64,000 nt of DNA from Escherichia phage ESCO5: the sequence record NC_047776.2; one strand, 5' to 3'. The notes under the pieces were generated by a model that saw nothing but the letters and a program-made list of their open reading frames with translations, made no database searches and was not told the DNA's origin. Shown piece by piece: positions 4,926-12,813 of this stretch. How positions within the stretch are numbered: the stretch's first letter is position 1; the number at the start of each line of letters is the position of its first letter. Made by a program: the position numbers and the translations under genes.

Positions 4926-7900
4926 ATGGCAACATTCCCAACATATCCAGCAACGTCTCTCGAACAGGGCGTAGACCTGGTTATTTTCTCATCTAACCAA
5001 CTCCATGATGTTATTAATGGAAGTGCTACAGAGAGTATTGAAACAGAATCAGGGTTGATACCAACCCTGAGAAAATCCCTTGTTGACAACTTTTTCTTTA
5101 AAAGCCCATTGGATTGGGCGCAAGGCACAAACGAAACAGTTTTTAACCAACTACGTTATTTTCAGAATGGGGTATTGAGCGGTTATTATTATGCTCCTAA
5201 TGCTACATTGGTAAACCCAATTCCTATGCAAGGGACTCCAGTAGGAGATAACAACTGGGTATTGTGGGGACTGAAGACAGAACAACTAGCAACAGAAGTC
5301 ACCCCTTGGGTATATTCTGGTGCAACTGGTTATGAAACAGTAATCAGTCCTCCCTACATCTTTGATAGTGCTATTGTTACAATCAATGGTGTTATTCAGG
5401 TTCTGGGAGAAGCTTTCCGCATAGAAGATAGTAAAATCATTTTATCTGAACCTTTGGGACATGATCCTGCAACAGGACTGCCAAACAAGCTTTTTGCCTA
5501 TATTGGTAAAATCGTAGCTTCCGCAGATACAGATCCTAACTTAGAAAACCGTCTTGTCAGTTTAGAAACAAAAACTGAAGAACTGACAGAAAACATGGAT
5601 AAAGTACCTTTACAAACTATTGCTCGTAAATACGGTTTGTTGGATGACGAAGTAGCTTACGCAACAGCGGGTCAATCATTAACAGGGATTAAAGCTCTGT
5701 ATGATCCGGTAGCACAATCTTCCTACACATTGCCTCCTAACATCACAGGGACTTTAACATCTTTGTCTGTTTCTGGAGTAATGACTTATTCTGGCGGATC
5801 TGTAGATCTTTCTGCATTAGCTGTTGAACGTGGACAGTTTGTTCATTTGCCTACAAGCTTTGGTAATAATGTAACTCTGACAGCTAAAAATCAGACGATT
5901 GGGCGTGGCGCTGGTCGCTATCGTTGGGCGGGAAGTTTACCAAAAAGTATTTTAGCTTCTGATACATTGGAAACAAGTGGTGGATTAGGTCCAAATGCAT
6001 GGGTTCTAACTAATACAGAAGGACTGTTAACCCCTCGTGGTGGAACATACAACGATTTATTCGATGTTGTCCGCTTATCAGAATTTGCTAACAATACAAC
6101 TACCTATACCACACCAGAAGCAGCTTTCCAGGCGGCACTGTTAGCAGCAAAAGCTTCGAAAAGTAAGATTCTCGACGCTTACGGTTGTGATATGACTTTC
6201 ACGACAAGCTCTTTTGATATTCAAGATATCACTTTGCGTGGGGGTGTGTTCCGTGGTCAACGCGATTATCGTGTGCAAAATGCTACAGTAGAAGGCACAA
6301 CTTTCCGTAACTCTCGTGTTATGTATTGGGGTGGTGCTGTGCGCATGTTCGATTGTTTGTGGGACGGTGCTCCTCGCGCAGGTCAAGTTGGTAGCTTGGT
6401 ATTCCAAGGAAACCCAATATCAGGTACTTTTGAAATTGATAATTGTACTTTTAAAAACGGGTTATATGGCATCCTTCAACAAGGAACAGGGGAACCAGTA
6501 ACACGCGGTGTCTTCCGTAACCTTACCTTCATGGACATGCAAGGTGATGCAATAGAACTGAACGTCATCAATAAACATTATGATGATGGTTGTGTGATTG
6601 AGAATATTTACCTGTCTAATATTGATGGGACTAACGCTCCTATTCCTCTGTCCAACTGGGGTATCGGTATTGGTGTGGCTGGTAAAGGACCATATGGTTA
6701 CGGAATTCCTGATGATCAATATTGCAAGAATATTACAATTCGTAACGTTTTTGCAAAACGTTGTCGTCAGATTGTCCACGTAGAAGTTGGTCGTAATATT
6801 TCTATCGAAAACATTCATGGCGATCCAGATCAAACTGTATCTGTTGGGACAGGTTTGGCAACTGGCGCAGTTGTAATGTATGGAAGTAAAGATTTTACGA
6901 TTGATGGTGTTTACGGAGAGCCTAAAACAGACGGTAGCACACTTGCAAGTAATATCCGTATGATTTATTTGGAGTGGGGAACTAACGCAGTTCTGGATGA
7001 AGAGGGCAATCCGGTAGTTCCGGCACAGGGCAGACCTTCAAACCCATGCTTTAACTATTCTGTTCGTAACATTCACACCAAAACTGGGCGTGTTTTTGCA
7101 GGAGTTTCCGCTGGGCCAGGTTATGAAAACAGAGTCAGCTTTGAGAATATCCATTGTGCTGCGTTGCAGTTGTTCGGTGTAGCTTCTTGGCTTTCAATGT
7201 CTAACATCACCTGTAATATCTTTGATTGTGTTGGTCAACCTGAATCTGGTCCAGGGACATTTTATGATGGATTCTTCCGTAGAGAAAAATCTGTTCTTGA
7301 GATGGTTAACGTAAACTGTTACCCAGATGGCAAGACTATGGTTACTGGTCGCCCACAGTGGAGCCGTTGCCGTTACTCTGATATTCATCGTGTCAACTGT
7401 AATGTTGAAGCTAATATGTATACCAATATCGCAGGTGGTATTGGAGCTATTGTAGGGACAACTGGCAAAGTTTATTACTTAGAGCCTAACCCTAGCCGAA
7501 ACATTGATGGGATGCATTTCCCAACAGGGAAGGAGTTTGACAAAGGGGATATGATAGTCAAAGCGGATAATACGTTCTTCCTTGTAACAACAAGTGGGGC
7601 ATACATTCCAGATATCCCAGCTTTCGGTATTCGAGCTACACAAGCAGGAGATACCTTCCTGACACAGAACTTGACTCCTAATGGGACAGCAACAAACGCT
7701 TCTTGGTTGTATCACTATCCTCTGTCAGCAGGAACACGTATCCGTATTCCTGGTGCTGGTGTAGGTGGAGCAGATTTGGACACAGTTATTACTCGTGCAC
7801 CTTATCAAGATAATGATACGTGGACTAACCCAGTTAAAATAGACATTGCAGATCCAATTGTAACGCCTACGAGTGCTGGAGTTAGAATCAAAACCATACC

Positions 7901-7979
7901 TAACGATTCTAGTAATGTTTCTGTAGGTAATACTGCGGTTATTCGCCCAACACCAGTGGTAGATGTGCCAACAACCTAA
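4926..7979 (+). CDS. tailspike / tail fibre with parallel beta-helix (possible depolymerase)
   Basis: 1017 aa; recurring rung-like motifs (IENIHGD, VRNIHTK, FENIHCA, NITIRNV) typical of pectate-lyase-fold tailspikes. Confidence 0.6.
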   Translation: MATFPTYPATSLEQGVDLVIFSSNQLHDVINGSATESIETESGLIPTLRKSLVDNFFFKSPLDWAQGTNETVFNQLRYFQNGVLSGYYYAPNATLVNPIPMQGTPVGDNNWVLWGLKTEQLATEVTPWVYSGATGYETVISPPYIFDSAIVTINGVIQVLGEAFRIEDSKIILSEPLGHDPATGLPNKLFAYIGKIVASADTDPNLENRLVSLETKTEELTENMDKVPLQTIARKYGLLDDEVAYATAGQSLTGIKALYDPVAQSSYTLPPNITGTLTSLSVSGVMTYSGGSVDLSALAVERGQFVHLPTSFGNNVTLTAKNQTIGRGAGRYRWAGSLPKSILASDTLETSGGLGPNAWVLTNTEGLLTPRGGTYNDLFDVVRLSEFANNTTTYTTPEAAFQAALLAAKASKSKILDAYGCDMTFTTSSFDIQDITLRGGVFRGQRDYRVQNATVEGTTFRNSRVMYWGGAVRMFDCLWDGAPRAGQVGSLVFQGNPISGTFEIDNCTFKNGLYGILQQGTGEPVTRGVFRNLTFMDMQGDAIELNVINKHYDDGCVIENIYLSNIDGTNAPIPLSNWGIGIGVAGKGPYGYGIPDDQYCKNITIRNVFAKRCRQIVHVEVGRNISIENIHGDPDQTVSVGTGLATGAVVMYGSKDFTIDGVYGEPKTDGSTLASNIRMIYLEWGTNAVLDEEGNPVVPAQGRPSNPCFNYSVRNIHTKTGRVFAGVSAGPGYENRVSFENIHCAALQLFGVASWLSMSNITCNIFDCVGQPESGPGTFYDGFFRREKSVLEMVNVNCYPDGKTMVTGRPQWSRCRYSDIHRVNCNVEANMYTNIAGGIGAIVGTTGKVYYLEPNPSRNIDGMHFPTGKEFDKGDMIVKADNTFFLVTTSGAYIPDIPAFGIRATQAGDTFLTQNLTPNGTATNASWLYHYPLSAGTRIRIPGAGVGGADLDTVITRAPYQDNDTWTNPVKIDIADPIVTPTSAGVRIKTIPNDSSNVSVGNTAVIRPTPVVDVPTT

Positions 7980-8043: not shown

Positions 8044-10068
8044 ATGAATTTAACAAGACCTAATAGTGCGATAGCCGATCTAGTAGAAGCTACTTATCGA
8101 AAACGTCGCAGTTTTGAGGCAGGTTTTACATTACGTAATTCCCGTGAAGTTTTGCTGTTAGCGGCAGAAGGGAATTATTACCAATGGAAAGGAACTTTTC
8201 CTAAAGTAGTTCCAGCAAACTCTACGCCAGCCACCACAGGTGGTATTTCTTCCCTTGCATGGCAAAGTGTTGGGACCGCTGATGATATAGCAATTATCAA
8301 TGCCAAGTTTACGGCAATGCAGCAACAGATTGATGATCTGTCGGAAACAATACCTGAAGCTGGTAAATCGGCTTATCAGATCGCACTTGATAATGGTTTT
8401 GTTGGAACAGAAGCACAATGGCTTGCTTCTTTGAAAGGGGATACTGGTGCTCAACTTAATATTAAAGGATCATTAGCAAGCACTAGTGAACTACCATCTA
8501 CAGGTAACGTAGCAGGTGATGGTTATATTGTAGGAGATGTAATCTACGCTTGGGATGGGGCTGTTTGGAAACTTATCTCTTCTCTTGGGCCAGAAGGGAA
8601 ATCAGCTTACGAGGTATGGTTAGCAGATGGTAATACAGGATCTGTTTATGACTTTCTTGCCTCTATAAAAGGTGATAAAGGAGACGTTGGTCCTACAGGT
8701 CCACAGGGTGCACCTGGTGTCAACGCTAATGGTTTTGATTACCGTGGAGATTTGCCTTCTACAAGTAACTTACCACAACCTAACTCTGAAAACGTAAGCC
8801 AAGCTTATTCTATTAATGGTAATCTTTATGTCTCTAATGGGACAGCTTGGGTCAACATGGGTAATATTGTTGGTCCTCAAGGTCCACAAGGTGAGGCAGG
8901 TAAAGACGGTCTAGATGGAACAGATGGAGACGAAGGGAAATCTGCATATCAAAGTTGGCTGGATGCTGGTAATGAAGGGACAGAAGTAGATTTTATTGCC
9001 TCACTTAAAGGTCCAAAAGGAGACAAGGGTGATCAAGGAGAGCGAGGTCCACAAGGTGAACTAGGTCCACAAGGACCAGTGGGTGCAACAGGATCAGGTT
9101 TAGAGATTATCGGGGTTCTGAACAGCGAAGCTGAACTTCCTCCTACTGGAGAAGTAGGTGATGCATATAAAATTAATAATGATTTGTATGTTTGGGTTCA
9201 AGATGCTACAGAATGGATGAATGTAGGCAGTCTTGGAGGAACATCAATTACAGCTAAAGGTCATGTTCCGAACAGTGAAGCTCTCCCTGTTTATAATAAC
9301 TACGGTGATGCCTATTTAACTGAAGACACTAGTAATCTTTACATCTATACCTACGATCAAGACACCAATTCCGCATCTTTTGTTGACATGGGAAGTATTA
9401 AAGGCGACAAAGGTGAAAAAGGGGATAAAGGAGATAAGGGTGATCCTGGAACAAACGGAACCAACGGTACTGATGGGACCAACGGTAAGGACGGCGCACA
9501 GTGGTTTGTAGCAACAACTAATCCAGTCACAGGAGACGGTGTTATCAATGATTACGCCTTCAATACTACCACTGGAGCAGTATTTAAGAAAACAGATTCT
9601 TCTACGTGGACACTTATAGGAACTCTTCCTAGTATACCAGAAGCCCCTCAAGACGGCTTGACGTATGGTCGTTCTGATGGAAACTGGATCGAAATATCAG
9701 GATCAGATCCTACGGAAGCTATAACACCAACTAGAGTTACAGCAGGTTTCATGGAACTTGAAACAACTACTGCCAACTCTGGAGCATCTTGGACTCCTTC
9801 TGGAACTTCCAATATGTATGTTGTTACAGTAACTGACGCTCTGACAGTTGGAGCATGGCCTGGTGTCACTGGCTCTACAAAACCTAAAGCGTTTTCAGCA
9901 ATGATTTATTTGATTCAAGATACAACGGGACACACGGTTACACTAGATGCGTCTTATGGAGCACTAAATGATACAGAAATAGCAACTACTGCTAACGCAG
10001 TAACAATTTTGCAATTAACGTATCCTGGTGTGGGTGATATCGTGGACATGGTTGTTGTAACACGATAA
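8044..10068 (+). CDS. tail fibre with collagen-like Gly-X-Y segments
   Basis: 674 aa; several G-X-Y runs (GPTGPQGAPG; GPQGPQGEAGKDGLDGTDGDEGK; GDKGEKGDKGDKGDPGTNGTNGTDGTNGKDG) and three GKSAY(Q/E)-W/A-L-D/A-GN modules. Confidence 0.7.
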   Translation: MNLTRPNSAIADLVEATYRKRRSFEAGFTLRNSREVLLLAAEGNYYQWKGTFPKVVPANSTPATTGGISSLAWQSVGTADDIAIINAKFTAMQQQIDDLSETIPEAGKSAYQIALDNGFVGTEAQWLASLKGDTGAQLNIKGSLASTSELPSTGNVAGDGYIVGDVIYAWDGAVWKLISSLGPEGKSAYEVWLADGNTGSVYDFLASIKGDKGDVGPTGPQGAPGVNANGFDYRGDLPSTSNLPQPNSENVSQAYSINGNLYVSNGTAWVNMGNIVGPQGPQGEAGKDGLDGTDGDEGKSAYQSWLDAGNEGTEVDFIASLKGPKGDKGDQGERGPQGELGPQGPVGATGSGLEIIGVLNSEAELPPTGEVGDAYKINNDLYVWVQDATEWMNVGSLGGTSITAKGHVPNSEALPVYNNYGDAYLTEDTSNLYIYTYDQDTNSASFVDMGSIKGDKGEKGDKGDKGDPGTNGTNGTDGTNGKDGAQWFVATTNPVTGDGVINDYAFNTTTGAVFKKTDSSTWTLIGTLPSIPEAPQDGLTYGRSDGNWIEISGSDPTEAITPTRVTAGFMELETTTANSGASWTPSGTSNMYVVTVTDALTVGAWPGVTGSTKPKAFSAMIYLIQDTTGHTVTLDASYGALNDTEIATTANAVTILQLTYPGVGDIVDMVVVTR

Positions 10069-10070
10069 CA

Positions 10071-10096
10071 GAAGCCCCGAAAGGGGCTTTCTTTTT
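10071..10096 (+). terminator. rho-independent terminator
   Basis: agccccgaaaggggct hairpin followed by ttcttttt. Confidence 0.6.
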
Positions 10097-10109
10097 ATGG
10101 AGGGTTTAA

Positions 10110-12782
10110 ATGTTTCCAATTCCAATATTTACTATTATGACCAGCACTGGTGTCGTTCCTCTGCCAGCAGGTATTGTTAAAAAAGTAATCACTCTAGATT
10201 ACCCAGATAATGCTGGCAATTCTAATAGCAGTTTAGCAATTTTGCTTAATGATGGTAGATTGTTTACTCAAGGCGCAAACCTTTTTGGTGAGATTGCAGA
10301 TGGAACTCGTAGTGCACGATTCAATAATTTCCACTTAGCTTCTACTGTAGTAGCGGATGTGTTTACCGCAGATCGTTGTTTTGTTATTAAAACTAACAGT
10401 GGGGGATGGCAATATTCAGGATTGACAGCAGGGTTGGTAGGATCTATAGCAGCAGGTGGTACGGATGCATGTGTAACTACTTGGACCAGCTTTCCATCTG
10501 TAATAACAGGGACTATCTCTTTAGCCAATCTTAAAGAGGTTAAGGGAGGATATAACAACACTCTCTGGTTGATGAATAGTGGTGTTCTTTATGGATCAGG
10601 TCAAAACACAGTAGGCAGTTTAGGTGCAAGTACTACTAACGAAGTTTCTACTCCTCGTCAGATAACAAGTGCAGCAGTTGCTTTTGATGCAGGTTACAAC
10701 CAATGCTCTTATGTCAACAATGTGGGAACCTTGCGTGTTTGTGGGGCTAGTAAAGGTTTAGCAGGTAATAATAACACAACAACAGCTTTTGTCAATGCCA
10801 AGATATCCGCTACTGAAACAGTGTATGTCAAAGATTACATCAATACAGTTTCCCAGACAATAGTTGTAGGAGATACCTCCGGTGGCACGGGTACAGTAAA
10901 CTACTTATATGTTAGATCTAATACAGAAACAACCTACACTAAACTGGACACCTTTGCAGCAGGTTTCTCAACATGGAAATTTCCACCAAGCCGCCACTCT
11001 TTTTTCGTTGGGATCAATAATTCCTTGTGGGCTATTGGTAAGAACTACACTGCAAACTTAGGTTTGGGGTATGATTCTGCGAGCGGAGATCCACTCCAAG
11101 TGGGAAAACCAGTTAAACCTGAAGGAGTGGGTTCCTGGGATATAAACAAGCTCACAAGCGTTCATACACTGAATATGGATGTTACTAACCAATTAGGTTA
11201 TCAAGGAACCTTTTTCGTTTATAATGGAGATATGTATTATTCAGGTATTTGGAAAGATGGGAAAGCCTCGTATCTGTTCAATAGTGGTCTAAACTATAAT
11301 AAATTCACACCAATAGCAAGCTCCGTGATTACAGGGGATGTTCTGGCAACTGGCTTAACTACAGATTCTTTAGGAATTTGTATTGTAGGTGGAACTAAAC
11401 AGTTGACACATTCTGTTAGCCCAGAAGGAGGTAAACTTTTCAATATTAAATACACTTCTTCTGCCCCTGCAAACATGACAATATCATCTACTGGTTTAAT
11501 GACTTTCCATGCAGAAGGTGGTTTTGATGCAGGTATGACAGCCTTAAACGCTGAAGGAACAATTTTATCAGATACCTCTGGAGGATATGCTTCAACATTG
11601 AGTGTTTACACCCCTAGCTTATCTGCGATGGATGTAGGAACAACACAAACAATGGTAGCAGAAATAACACCAACAGGAGCAGCAAGCTTACCTGATATGG
11701 TTGTTGAGTATACAACTACAGATCCTAATGTTGCTACAGTAGATCCTACAACTGGTGTAATAACTGGTGTTGGTGATGGTGGTTGTAGGATTGGTTGCAC
11801 AGCTACGTATCAAGGTGTTGTTACCGCTTCTGATAGTTCTTATTTAACGGTGAATGCTGTTGCGGGAAAGGAGTTAGCTCCATCTCCGAGTAGTAGTTTA
11901 ACGGTTCTAAACGGATATTTCAACCACTCGGCAGATGGGGCAATTACGTTCCCAACTTTATCGGGTACTGTTACACCAGCTAACTTTGTAGTTAAGGTGG
12001 ATGACGTTGTAGTTCCTTCAAGTAAAGTAATATTTAGAAACAAAGCTTTCTCTACAGTGGATAGTTATCCAGCAGGAGAATATAGACTGGCTATTGAATT
12101 TGCAAGTGCTTCAGTAGTTAATAGTGTGGAAGTGTCTATGGAAGCAAACCCAAGTCTTTTAGAACTTTGGGGCGGTAATAGAATCAGTTATTCTACAAGC
12201 CCAGCCTCACAATTCTTAAAAGGTTGTGCTAACTTAAGACGAATAACTTCTGATTGTTTTAGTAACACATCTTACACCGGAACATCTATAAGCGGTATCT
12301 TCTCTGGCTGCACAAGTTTGACAGCTATCCCTGAAGGATTATTCAGTGATGCTTTATTTCCTTCAATGACAACAATGTCAAGCACGTTTGAAGGTTGTAC
12401 ATCTTTAACATCTATTCCTTCAGATTTATTTAAGAATCTGTCAAAAGTTACAAGATATTCTTACACCTTTAAAGATTGCACCTCTCTTGCAGAAGTTCCA
12501 GCAGGAATGTTTGATAATATTCCAACGAAAGTGACCTCTTTAACAGCTACATTCCAAGGTTGTTTAGGACTTACAGATTTTAATAAGATCTTTAATGACA
12601 ACCCAGGGTTAACTGTTTGTGGTAAACGTGGAGCATTATCTTCTTTCTTTAGTGGATGCACAAATCTTACAGGAACAGGAACAACATTAACAAATACATT
12701 AGGCGGAGTAGCTAATAGTTACCTATTCAGGTATTGCACAAAACTTTCTGATTATAACAACATTCCTTCCGGTTATAAATAA
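10110..12782 (+). CDS. tail fibre with Ig-like segment and C-terminal leucine-rich repeats
   Basis: 890 aa; Big2-like stretch (TTDPNVATVDPTTGVITGV) and six repeats of F-x-G-C-T-S-L-T-x-I-P-x-x-L-F near the C-terminus. Confidence 0.6.
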   Translation: MFPIPIFTIMTSTGVVPLPAGIVKKVITLDYPDNAGNSNSSLAILLNDGRLFTQGANLFGEIADGTRSARFNNFHLASTVVADVFTADRCFVIKTNSGGWQYSGLTAGLVGSIAAGGTDACVTTWTSFPSVITGTISLANLKEVKGGYNNTLWLMNSGVLYGSGQNTVGSLGASTTNEVSTPRQITSAAVAFDAGYNQCSYVNNVGTLRVCGASKGLAGNNNTTTAFVNAKISATETVYVKDYINTVSQTIVVGDTSGGTGTVNYLYVRSNTETTYTKLDTFAAGFSTWKFPPSRHSFFVGINNSLWAIGKNYTANLGLGYDSASGDPLQVGKPVKPEGVGSWDINKLTSVHTLNMDVTNQLGYQGTFFVYNGDMYYSGIWKDGKASYLFNSGLNYNKFTPIASSVITGDVLATGLTTDSLGICIVGGTKQLTHSVSPEGGKLFNIKYTSSAPANMTISSTGLMTFHAEGGFDAGMTALNAEGTILSDTSGGYASTLSVYTPSLSAMDVGTTQTMVAEITPTGAASLPDMVVEYTTTDPNVATVDPTTGVITGVGDGGCRIGCTATYQGVVTASDSSYLTVNAVAGKELAPSPSSSLTVLNGYFNHSADGAITFPTLSGTVTPANFVVKVDDVVVPSSKVIFRNKAFSTVDSYPAGEYRLAIEFASASVVNSVEVSMEANPSLLELWGGNRISYSTSPASQFLKGCANLRRITSDCFSNTSYTGTSISGIFSGCTSLTAIPEGLFSDALFPSMTTMSSTFEGCTSLTSIPSDLFKNLSKVTRYSYTFKDCTSLAEVPAGMFDNIPTKVTSLTATFQGCLGLTDFNKIFNDNPGLTVCGKRGALSSFFSGCTNLTGTGTTLTNTLGGVANSYLFRYCTKLSDYNNIPSGYK

Positions 12783-12813
12783 GAAAAGGAGCCATTTGGC
12801 TCCTTTCTTTTAT
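12781..12813. terminator. bidirectional rho-independent terminator between convergent gene blocks
   Basis: aggagcc-attt-ggctcct hairpin flanked by an A-run upstream and a T-run downstream, between the + fibre genes and the - replication block. Confidence 0.6.

Follow-up and report, generated by a model that had tools for sequence, protein, structure and literature searches.

The tail-fiber gene cluster of Escherichia phage ESCO5 (sequence record NC_047776.2) ends in two large open reading frames (ORFs), denoted A and B here, and the question this locus raises is what kinds of protein they encode and what part each plays in adsorption. The analyzed window, a stretch of 64,000 nucleotides, contains both ORFs within positions 8044-12782, a region that is 100% identical to that of Escherichia phage vB_EcoM_REC (REC; OM386667.1; Phapecoctavirus, Stephanstirmvirinae), a laboratory recombinant of ESCO5 and ESCO37 that received this part from ESCO5. 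About 60 other phAPEC8-like phages match the 4.7-kb region at 93-98% identity. An initial annotation had described two unusual fibers, one collagen-like with internal repeats and one tipped with leucine-rich repeats (LRRs); the two ORFs and all the repeats described in them are real and far beyond chance, as judged from ORF coordinates and shuffled sequences:

8044-10068, plus strand: ORF A, putative segmented collagen-like lateral tail fiber of 674 amino acids (REC_00252, phrog_15437, "TfpM2" type; ORF call, Pfam, PHROG)
10110-12782, plus strand: ORF B, putative multidomain adhesin-like tail protein of 890 amino acids (REC_00253, phrog_11922, "TfpM1" type; ORF call, PHROG, AlphaFold2)

The reading that we favor, with moderate confidence, is that the locus supplies the last two parts of a multivalent adsorption apparatus of a phAPEC8-like myovirus, namely a trimeric fiber, A, and an adhesin-like protein, B.

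From its N-terminus, A comprises a 15-residue peptide, a Tail_spike_N module, a short probable helix, a shaft in which three GKSAY modules, four collagen-like runs, and five beta modules alternate, a foldon-like motif, and a tip domain:

8077-8274, plus strand: Tail_spike_N module, residues 12-77, the probable docking end (PF18668; matches N-proximal domains of CBA120 TSP1/3/4, Sf11 gp13, and the E1004 tailspike)
8353-8445, plus strand: GKSAY module 1, residues 104-134 (motif, self-alignment)
8446-8595, plus strand: beta module 1, residues 135-184, with the motif LP..G.AY..LY.W..W..G (five copies aligned with foldon)
8587-8679 and 8926-9018, plus strand: GKSAY modules 2 and 3 (motif, self-alignment)
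8671-8718, plus strand: collagen-like run 1, residues 210-225, 5 triplets (Gly-X-Y scan)
8719-8880, 9094-9243, 9241-9411, and 9496-9627, plus strand: beta modules 2-5 (five copies aligned with foldon)
8872-8937, plus strand: collagen-like run 2, residues 277-298, 7 triplets, variable in length among orthologues (Gly-X-Y scan, alignment)
9010-9093, plus strand: collagen-like run 3, residues 323-350, 9 triplets (Gly-X-Y scan, alignment)
9403-9495, plus strand: collagen-like run 4, residues 454-484, 10 triplets (Gly-X-Y scan, alignment)
9628-9699, plus strand: foldon-like motif SIPEAPQDGLTYGRSDGNWIEI, residues 529-552 (foldon-containing chains 1v1h, E 0.0028, and 8wtj/8wro, E 0.0069)
9715-10065, plus strand: C-terminal tip domain, residues 558-674, common to phiTE, rV5-like, and Seunavirus fibers (phrog_4549, E 1e-39; 9cuy_g, E 5e-8)

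The collagen-like character of the four uninterrupted Gly-X-Y runs, proposed in the initial annotation, is borne out by the Pfam Collagen family (PF01391), which recognizes four stretches of A at 46.3 bits against a gathering score of 27.2 (E 3.6e-12), and by the period-3 glycine runs themselves (6, 8, 10, and 11 observed), because a run of at least 8 arose in 0 of 2000 shuffles of A. The three GKSAY modules are likewise present, starting at residues 107, 185, and 298 and spanning 31 residues each, and are interspersed with the beta modules of ~45-55 residues. A search of the PDB with the middle of A, covering the GKSAY and beta modules, produced weak collagen matches only, and no solved structure accounts for these modules.

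The ends of A, which along with the five beta modules and the propeller of B described below go beyond the initial annotation, resemble known structures. The Tail_spike_N module scores 71 bits against a gathering score of 25, resembles solved tailspike domains (9vvr, E 1.8e-13; also 9occ_G, 5w6h, and 4oj5), and is preceded by a near-invariant 15-residue peptide (invariant columns L3-E15 in the orthologue alignment). The motif at residues 529-552 resembles the foldon in sequence, and by the family threshold it is not a member of Fibritin_C (PF07921), with 13 bits and E 0.12 for the A fragment against a gathering score of 21; the orthologue from phage EmilieFrey, at 19.5 bits and E 0.0011, likewise remains under this score. 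The tip of ~115 residues is homologous to the tip of the phiTE fiber chain 9cuy_g and shares 51-58% identity with the C-termini of fibers that are otherwise unrelated to A. Its variability does not exceed that of the rest of the protein, which in these alignments appears unlike a typical receptor-binding end.

We infer that A would be a homotrimeric, segmented side fiber that docks via its conserved N-terminal peptide and Tail_spike_N module onto a branched tailspike/fiber complex. In the shaft, GKSAY modules would alternate with four short triple helices of the collagen type and with foldon-like knots rich in beta structure, which would hold the three chains in register, and the distal end would consist of the foldon-like clip and the conserved 115-residue domain.

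An architecture prone to repeat expansion or contraction, as anticipated in the initial annotation, is what comparison of 14 aligned A orthologues revealed. All sizeable indels fall within collagen runs 2, 3, or 4 and are multiples of three residues, with the sole exception of one orthologue (P0050) that lacks ~50 residues of the fifth beta module, and run 4 ranges from ~2 to ~12 triplets. In three of the four collagen runs (2, 3, and 4), the DNA carries tandem arrays with units of 9 or 18 nucleotides, identified by a tandem repeat scan:

8872-8892, plus strand: 9-nucleotide tandem array, run 2
9034-9075, plus strand: 18-nucleotide tandem array, run 3
9399-9444 and 9448-9485, plus strand: 9-nucleotide tandem arrays, run 4

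An 18-nucleotide deletion in iGC_PHA_EC001 (97% identical), at 9418-9435, removes exactly two 9-nucleotide units (KGDKGD) of the run-4 array. A far larger change, an in-frame internal deletion of 162 residues (REC residues ~319-480), is found in the A orthologue of vB_EcoM_EP57 (P0045; OR544956.1, a genome record of 130.7 kb), where GKSAY module 3 is fused to the end of run 4, with two collagen runs and two beta modules gone. In phages tuntematon and WPEC1, the central part of gene A (~8944-9390, covering GKSAY module 3, run 3, and beta modules 3-4) is a mosaic patch of sharp divergence, with up to 67 mismatches per 150 nucleotides, compared to mostly 0-16 in the flanking windows, which suggests recombination within the shaft and not at the tip. 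With its collagen segments built from tandem arrays of 9- and 18-nucleotide units, the shaft could change in length by slippage or recombination with the reading frame kept, and these alignments show the collagen shaft to be a length-variable spacer.

Plastic as it is, A is not unusual. Its modules are shared with 3888 database proteins, 78 PHROG families, and 1500 of 50,697 phage records, including jumbo phages, baseplate proteins of Clostridioides phages, and minor tail proteins of mycobacteriophages. Given this wide distribution and the already annotated orthologue, A is an ordinary fiber kind, and the description of it as unusual does not hold. The GKSAY module in particular is repeated in many phage fibers and in P0113, a metagenomic protein of 956 residues with a lipoprotein-like signal sequence, ~20 GKSAYELAVDKGYTGTEEEWLASLVG modules alternating with short collagen stretches, and a C-terminal LRR_5 domain; a GKSAY-collagen shaft and an LRR tip therefore co-occur in one polypeptide.

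The annotated orthologue, bas61_0034 of the phi92-like BASEL phage EmilieFrey ("lateral tail fiber protein with type I collagen domain"), is 60% identical to A over the full length, with the same order of Tail_spike_N, collagen runs, foldon-like motif, and tip and the same slot in the locus after a glycosidase tailspike, but differs in the numbers of triplets in runs 2-4. Its counterpart in phi92 itself is, by synteny, probably gp151. In phi92-like phages, unlike here, the next gene encodes Big_2 domains and a glycosidase, without propeller or LRRs.

Several experimentally or structurally studied systems share individual elements with A. EPclA and EPclB, trimeric collagen-like phage-fiber proteins of E. 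coli O157 prophages that have been characterized experimentally (Ghosh et al. 2012, PMC3368898), also contain collagen domains within a phage fiber and have flanks that serve as trimerization domains, and their alleles differ in length by multiples of three (PMC3368898). However, their flanking domains (PfN, PCoil, PfC, and Pf2) differ from those of A (PMC3368898), and they possess one or two long collagen domains (~111 residues), whereas A has four short runs (16-31 residues) amid GKSAY and beta modules. The branched tailspike complexes of CBA120 (TSP1-4), G7C, and Sf11 (gp13) have in common with A an N-proximal Tail_spike_N module and place several receptor-binding proteins on one particle, but in those proteins a beta-helix depolymerase follows the module, whereas in A it is followed by the collagen-segmented fiber. 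The foldon of T4 fibritin and A share the motif IPEAPxDGxxYxRxDGxW immediately behind a fibrous segment; unlike in fibritin, the motif in A scores below the Fibritin_C threshold and is followed by a domain of 115 residues rather than by the end of the protein.

Protein B, which belongs to a known PHROG family (phrog_11922) limited to myovirus genomes of ~150 kb, is of a different nature. Its AlphaFold2 monomer model (mean pLDDT 85.4) is a string of globular domains:

10110-11309, plus strand: RCC1-like seven-bladed beta-propeller, residues 1-~400 (PF00415, Foldseek, phrog_4219 at E 5.5e-34)
11322-11858, plus strand: two Big_2 immunoglobulin (Ig)-like domains, residues ~405-583 (PF02368, two stretches)
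11856-11861, plus strand: cassette junction after ...SSYLTVNAV, residues ~583/584, where alternative C-terminal modules join (allele comparison)
11901-12179, plus strand: beta-sandwich domain, residues ~598-690, within the swappable cassette (AlphaFold2 fragment, pLDDT 89.1; weak resemblance to the N-terminal domains of CBA120 TSP4)
12180-12779, plus strand: BspA/DUF285-type LRR solenoid of seven repeats, residues 691-890 (predicted)

The propeller makes up nearly half of the protein. The RCC1 repeat PF00415 is above its threshold (24.2 bits versus 21.7), which places B among the RCC1-like propellers, whereas the whole-domain model PF25390 is below its own (42 versus 150), and Foldseek matched the predicted fold to UVR8 (E 1e-13, TM-score (target) 0.69-0.71) and also to RCC1. 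The Ig-like segment of the initial annotation resolves into two Big_2 domains (35.8 bits versus 22.8), a pair that is 61-66% identical to the N-terminus of the phi92-like protein bas61_0035. No trimerization element or fibrous shaft (coiled coil, beta-helix, or collagen) was found in the confident folds of the AlphaFold2 monomer. B as a trimeric fiber was rejected on domain composition, since propeller, Ig, sandwich, and LRR folds are normally monomeric, and its initial description as a fiber does not hold. In the literature searched, we found no description of the propeller-Ig-LRR composition of B or of exchange of its cassette.

The LRR tip had been predicted from six F-x-G-C-T-S-L-T-x-I-P repeats. 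Six repeats of the shorter form F-x-x-C-x-x-L do occur, at residues 731, 760, 787, 815, 847, and 873, with a degenerate seventh at ~702 and a period of 21-32 residues, against a maximum of two occurrences across 5000 shuffles of B; the full motif, even when relaxed to F-x-G/D-C-T-S-L-x-x-[IV]-P, is matched by only three of them. Foldseek with the whole B model returned almost solely RCC1-like propeller matches and was uninformative on the tip. In the predicted model, residues 691-890 nevertheless form the beta-loop solenoid that tandem repeats of 20-30 residues make in an LRR fold, and this region is homologous to proteins that exceed the LRR_5 or DUF285 thresholds: P0163, a homologue of B (E 4.5e-29), scores 38.4 bits for LRR_5, and the C-termini of P0021 and P0025, which match DUF285 at E 1e-42 and 1e-40, are 30% identical to the REC cassette (E 2e-6 and 2e-7; hhalign E 2e-5). 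The region itself stays below the Pfam gathering scores, with 17 bits against 27.7 for LRR_5 (PF13306; E 0.0058) and 14.7 bits against 25 for DUF285 (PF03382; E 0.027), and this weighs against the adhesin-like reading of B. Pfam searches with the families suggested at the outset thus placed Collagen and Big_2 above their thresholds and the LRR families below, and the LRR tip is upheld by the predicted fold and by transitive homology but not by family membership at sequence level.

Comparison of B alleles exposed the exchange of entire C-terminal modules at one junction, after residue ~583. Five outcomes were found, namely the beta-sandwich with the LRR region; an unrelated segment of 305 residues, whose homologues include the appendage at the C-terminus of gp17, the distal tail protein of Sf11, and the head-spike fiber of RcGTA; a canonical DUF285 domain (E 1e-42); in 4MG-like phages, nothing further; and, in phi92-like phages, which lack the propeller, a glycosidase region directly behind the Big_2 pair. 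Alleles with 99% identical propellers bear unrelated cassettes and, conversely, the LRR cassette is 89-97% identical across scaffolds that share just 75-81% identity. In the favored model, B would be a probably monomeric, adhesin-like tail protein and not a trimeric fiber, the conserved N-terminal two thirds (propeller and two Big_2 domains) would be the scaffold or attachment part, and the C-terminal 300 residues (beta-sandwich and BspA/DUF285-type LRR solenoid) would be an exchangeable ligand-binding cassette, the concave side of whose LRRs would most likely recognize a glycan or a protein at the surface.

The relatives of the individual parts of B differ from it in how these parts are combined. 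Compared with the BspA-type LRR_5/DUF285 surface proteins (BACOVA_04585, 4fs7; Treponema pallidum TpLRR, 6mlx), whose two Pfam families the B region does not reach, the LRRs of B lie in a cassette at the C-terminus of a propeller-Ig scaffold from a phage. Two other phage tail contexts contain LRR modules that are homologues of the B tip, gp35 of a P2-like Klebsiella phage (Tail_P2_I, Big_2, and LRR_5) and the crAss-like protein P0170, with 33-42% identity including the C-terminal cap. Both are encoded among tail genes, like B, but neither has a propeller; the LRRs of gp35 are fused to the baseplate protein gpI and P0170 is a stand-alone protein of 269 residues. In Klebsiella phage ST16-OXA48phi5.4, gp35 (locus L002, 2523-5549, 1008 residues) is a P2-type gpI fused to Big_2 and a region matching LRR_5, DUF285, and LRR_8, and related Klebsiella phages have 7-8 LRR-like matches per genome. 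The P0170 gene (ENA ERZ16268206 scaffold_79, 97.9 kb; locus L009, 3410-4219) is interrupted in frame by a stop codon under genetic code 11, and its translation differs from the catalogued protein; this may be an instance of the reassigned stop codons of some crAss-like phages. Descriptions of LRR or DUF285 domains as phage receptor-binding domains in the literature searched were confined to annotation tables. W70_237-239 of Vequintavirinae belong to the same PHROG as the propeller of B and are present in purified virions but, unlike B, are stand-alone propellers of 40-43 kDa whose genes lie at other genomic positions; the name "chromosome condensation" came to them by annotation transfer.

Data on the related phage W70 also bear on the virion location of A and B. 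Mass spectrometry of its purified virions detected members of phrog_4219, phrog_3904, and phrog_4549, the latter two in abundance; phrog_3904 and phrog_4549 match the shaft and tip of A, and phrog_4219 is the family of the RCC1-like propeller of B. By this analogy, we infer that both proteins would be virion components. Several points weigh against this picture. We found no Phapecoctavirus virion proteome in the literature, nor any proteomic or structural data on A or B in this genus; the "proteomics" of PMC10698182 is in silico, and a homologue of B is not named in the text on the rV5 proteome. In addition, B has no recognizable docking module, is absent from the phi92-like phages (Justusliebigvirus), and is split into two coding sequences by single-G deletions in G-runs in iGC_PHA_EC001 (11102) and SF1-1 (10403). 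Finally, gp151 of phi92, the probable orthologue of A, misfits the density of fiber II in the phi92 cryo-EM study and was likened there to the Pa223 head spike gp52, and a terminator-like hairpin precedes B:

10071-10090, plus strand: terminator-like hairpin and T-run in the gap from the A stop codon to the B ribosome-binding site (pattern match only)

This hairpin may lower the expression of B relative to A. The frameshifts may be homopolymer sequencing errors or a sign of dispensability, and because B is frameshifted in two genomes and lies behind the hairpin, it may be dispensable or of low abundance.

A tentative extension of the favored model, to which we assign a minor but appreciable chance, is that A and B form one two-part fiber, with the tip of A as a docking platform, the propeller of B docked on it, and the swappable cassette as the distal specificity element. 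The idea arises because an A-type tip and a B-type propeller are neighbors in three genera. In Phapecoctavirus, Vequintavirus (rV5_ev156), and Seunavirus (4MG, SalP219), the gene directly upstream of the B homologue ends in an A-type tip (51-58% identity), although in the latter two genera the remainder of that protein is unrelated to A, and the downstream gene always starts with a B-type propeller (38-44% identity). An analogous arrangement is known from the long tail fiber of T4, in which the monomeric gp35 lies between trimeric segments. This adjacency hints at a two-part fiber, which is one reading among others, such as plain conserved synteny or binding of a conserved glycan by the tip; the phi92-like phages, which retain the tip without the propeller, speak against it.

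That B would instead be an adhesin decorating the virion away from the baseplate, on the capsid, neck, or tail tube, and binding environmental or mucosal substrates in the manner of Hoc-type Ig-domain proteins rather than a host receptor, is unlikely in our judgment, even though a number of observations agree with it. Its Big_2 domains share 42-48% identity with Ig-like domains from regions of Salmonella siphophages annotated as major tail protein and match phrog_215 ("structural protein with Ig domain"), one of the alternative cassettes is related to the RcGTA head-spike fiber, the lack of a docking module would be expected, and conservation is higher in the LRR cassette than in the scaffold, unlike a fast-evolving host-range determinant. 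However, B is encoded inside the lateral tail-fiber locus, in the slot that a lateral tail fiber gene occupies in phi92-like and rV5-like phages, and receptor-binding proteins typically exchange cassettes at one set position, as B does.

We consider it very unlikely that B is non-structural, the product of a dispensable accessory gene that closes the late operon, with "tail protein" labels that merely reflect annotation transfer. The placement of B in the virion by analogy leaves room for this reading, and the frameshifts, the hairpin, and the absence of B from Justusliebigvirus would be in line with it. However, both frameshifts lie in G-runs and may be sequencing errors, B is intact and conserved in most of the ~60 Phapecoctavirus records, and the RCC1-like phrog_4219 proteins are components of the W70 virion. 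Moreover, Fraser and colleagues are said to have reported in 2006 that phage Ig-like domains occur almost exclusively on virion proteins.

Just as improbable is that A is a whisker-like head or neck fiber and not a baseplate side fiber. In its favor are the likeness of gp151 to a head spike and its misfit to fiber II, the position of a related phrog_3904 protein among the W70 head genes, and the echo of T4 fibritin in the foldon-like motif. Against it are the Tail_spike_N module, which A shares with tailspikes at the baseplate or tail tip of CBA120, Sf11, and E1004, the embedding of gene A between a tailspike and the last tail-fiber gene, and the tip that it has in common with the phiTE baseplate fiber chain 9cuy_g.

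The surroundings of the two genes fit the favored reading of a multivalent apparatus, of which A and B would be the last parts. They form the 3' end of a tail-fiber cluster that comprises, upstream of A, an endosialidase, baseplate proteins, a short tail fiber with its chaperone, and a tailspike of the colanic acid type, and downstream of B the replication module follows in the opposite orientation, creating a convergent junction:

4926-7979, plus strand: tailspike of 1017 amino acids, colanic-acid-degrading type, with an internal Tail_spike_N module (context)
12785-12806, no strand assigned: bidirectional terminator-like hairpin at the convergent junction of B and the replication module (pattern match only)

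In this tailspike, Tail_spike_N is internal (residues 302-361) behind an N-terminal extension of 300 residues, which could be a branching adaptor for A. The claim that the phage carries several distinct receptor-binding proteins agrees with what is known of the group, in which multiple lateral fibers are co-expressed (a "nanosized Swiss army knife"), although the assignment of genes to fibers is unsettled there, the phi92 cryo-EM work included. Within the window, the GC skew switches sign near 12.8 kb, where this coincides with the convergent junction after B, and near 47-48 kb, and no tRNA genes were found across 1-64000. E. coli phAPEC8-, phi92-, or rV5-like phages are matched here by about 20 records, MG065650.1 among them, that bear the name Campylobacter phage (e.g., B15, A110a, A140). 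B15 has 95.7% nucleotide identity to the region 8044-12782, and the Campylobacter host label of these records looks doubtful.

Phapecoctavirus and its relatives are candidates for broad-host-range therapeutic use, and the domain maps described here are testable for the two least characterized genes of the locus. The junction at residue ~583 of B, a natural exchange site of LRR, lectin-like (the "GWYRV" allele of UP17/Ro121lw), and DUF285 modules, offers a ready-made site for host-range engineering. Because LRR-type modules recur in the tail loci of one crAss-like and one P2-like phage, they may constitute an under-recognized class of phage binding domain.

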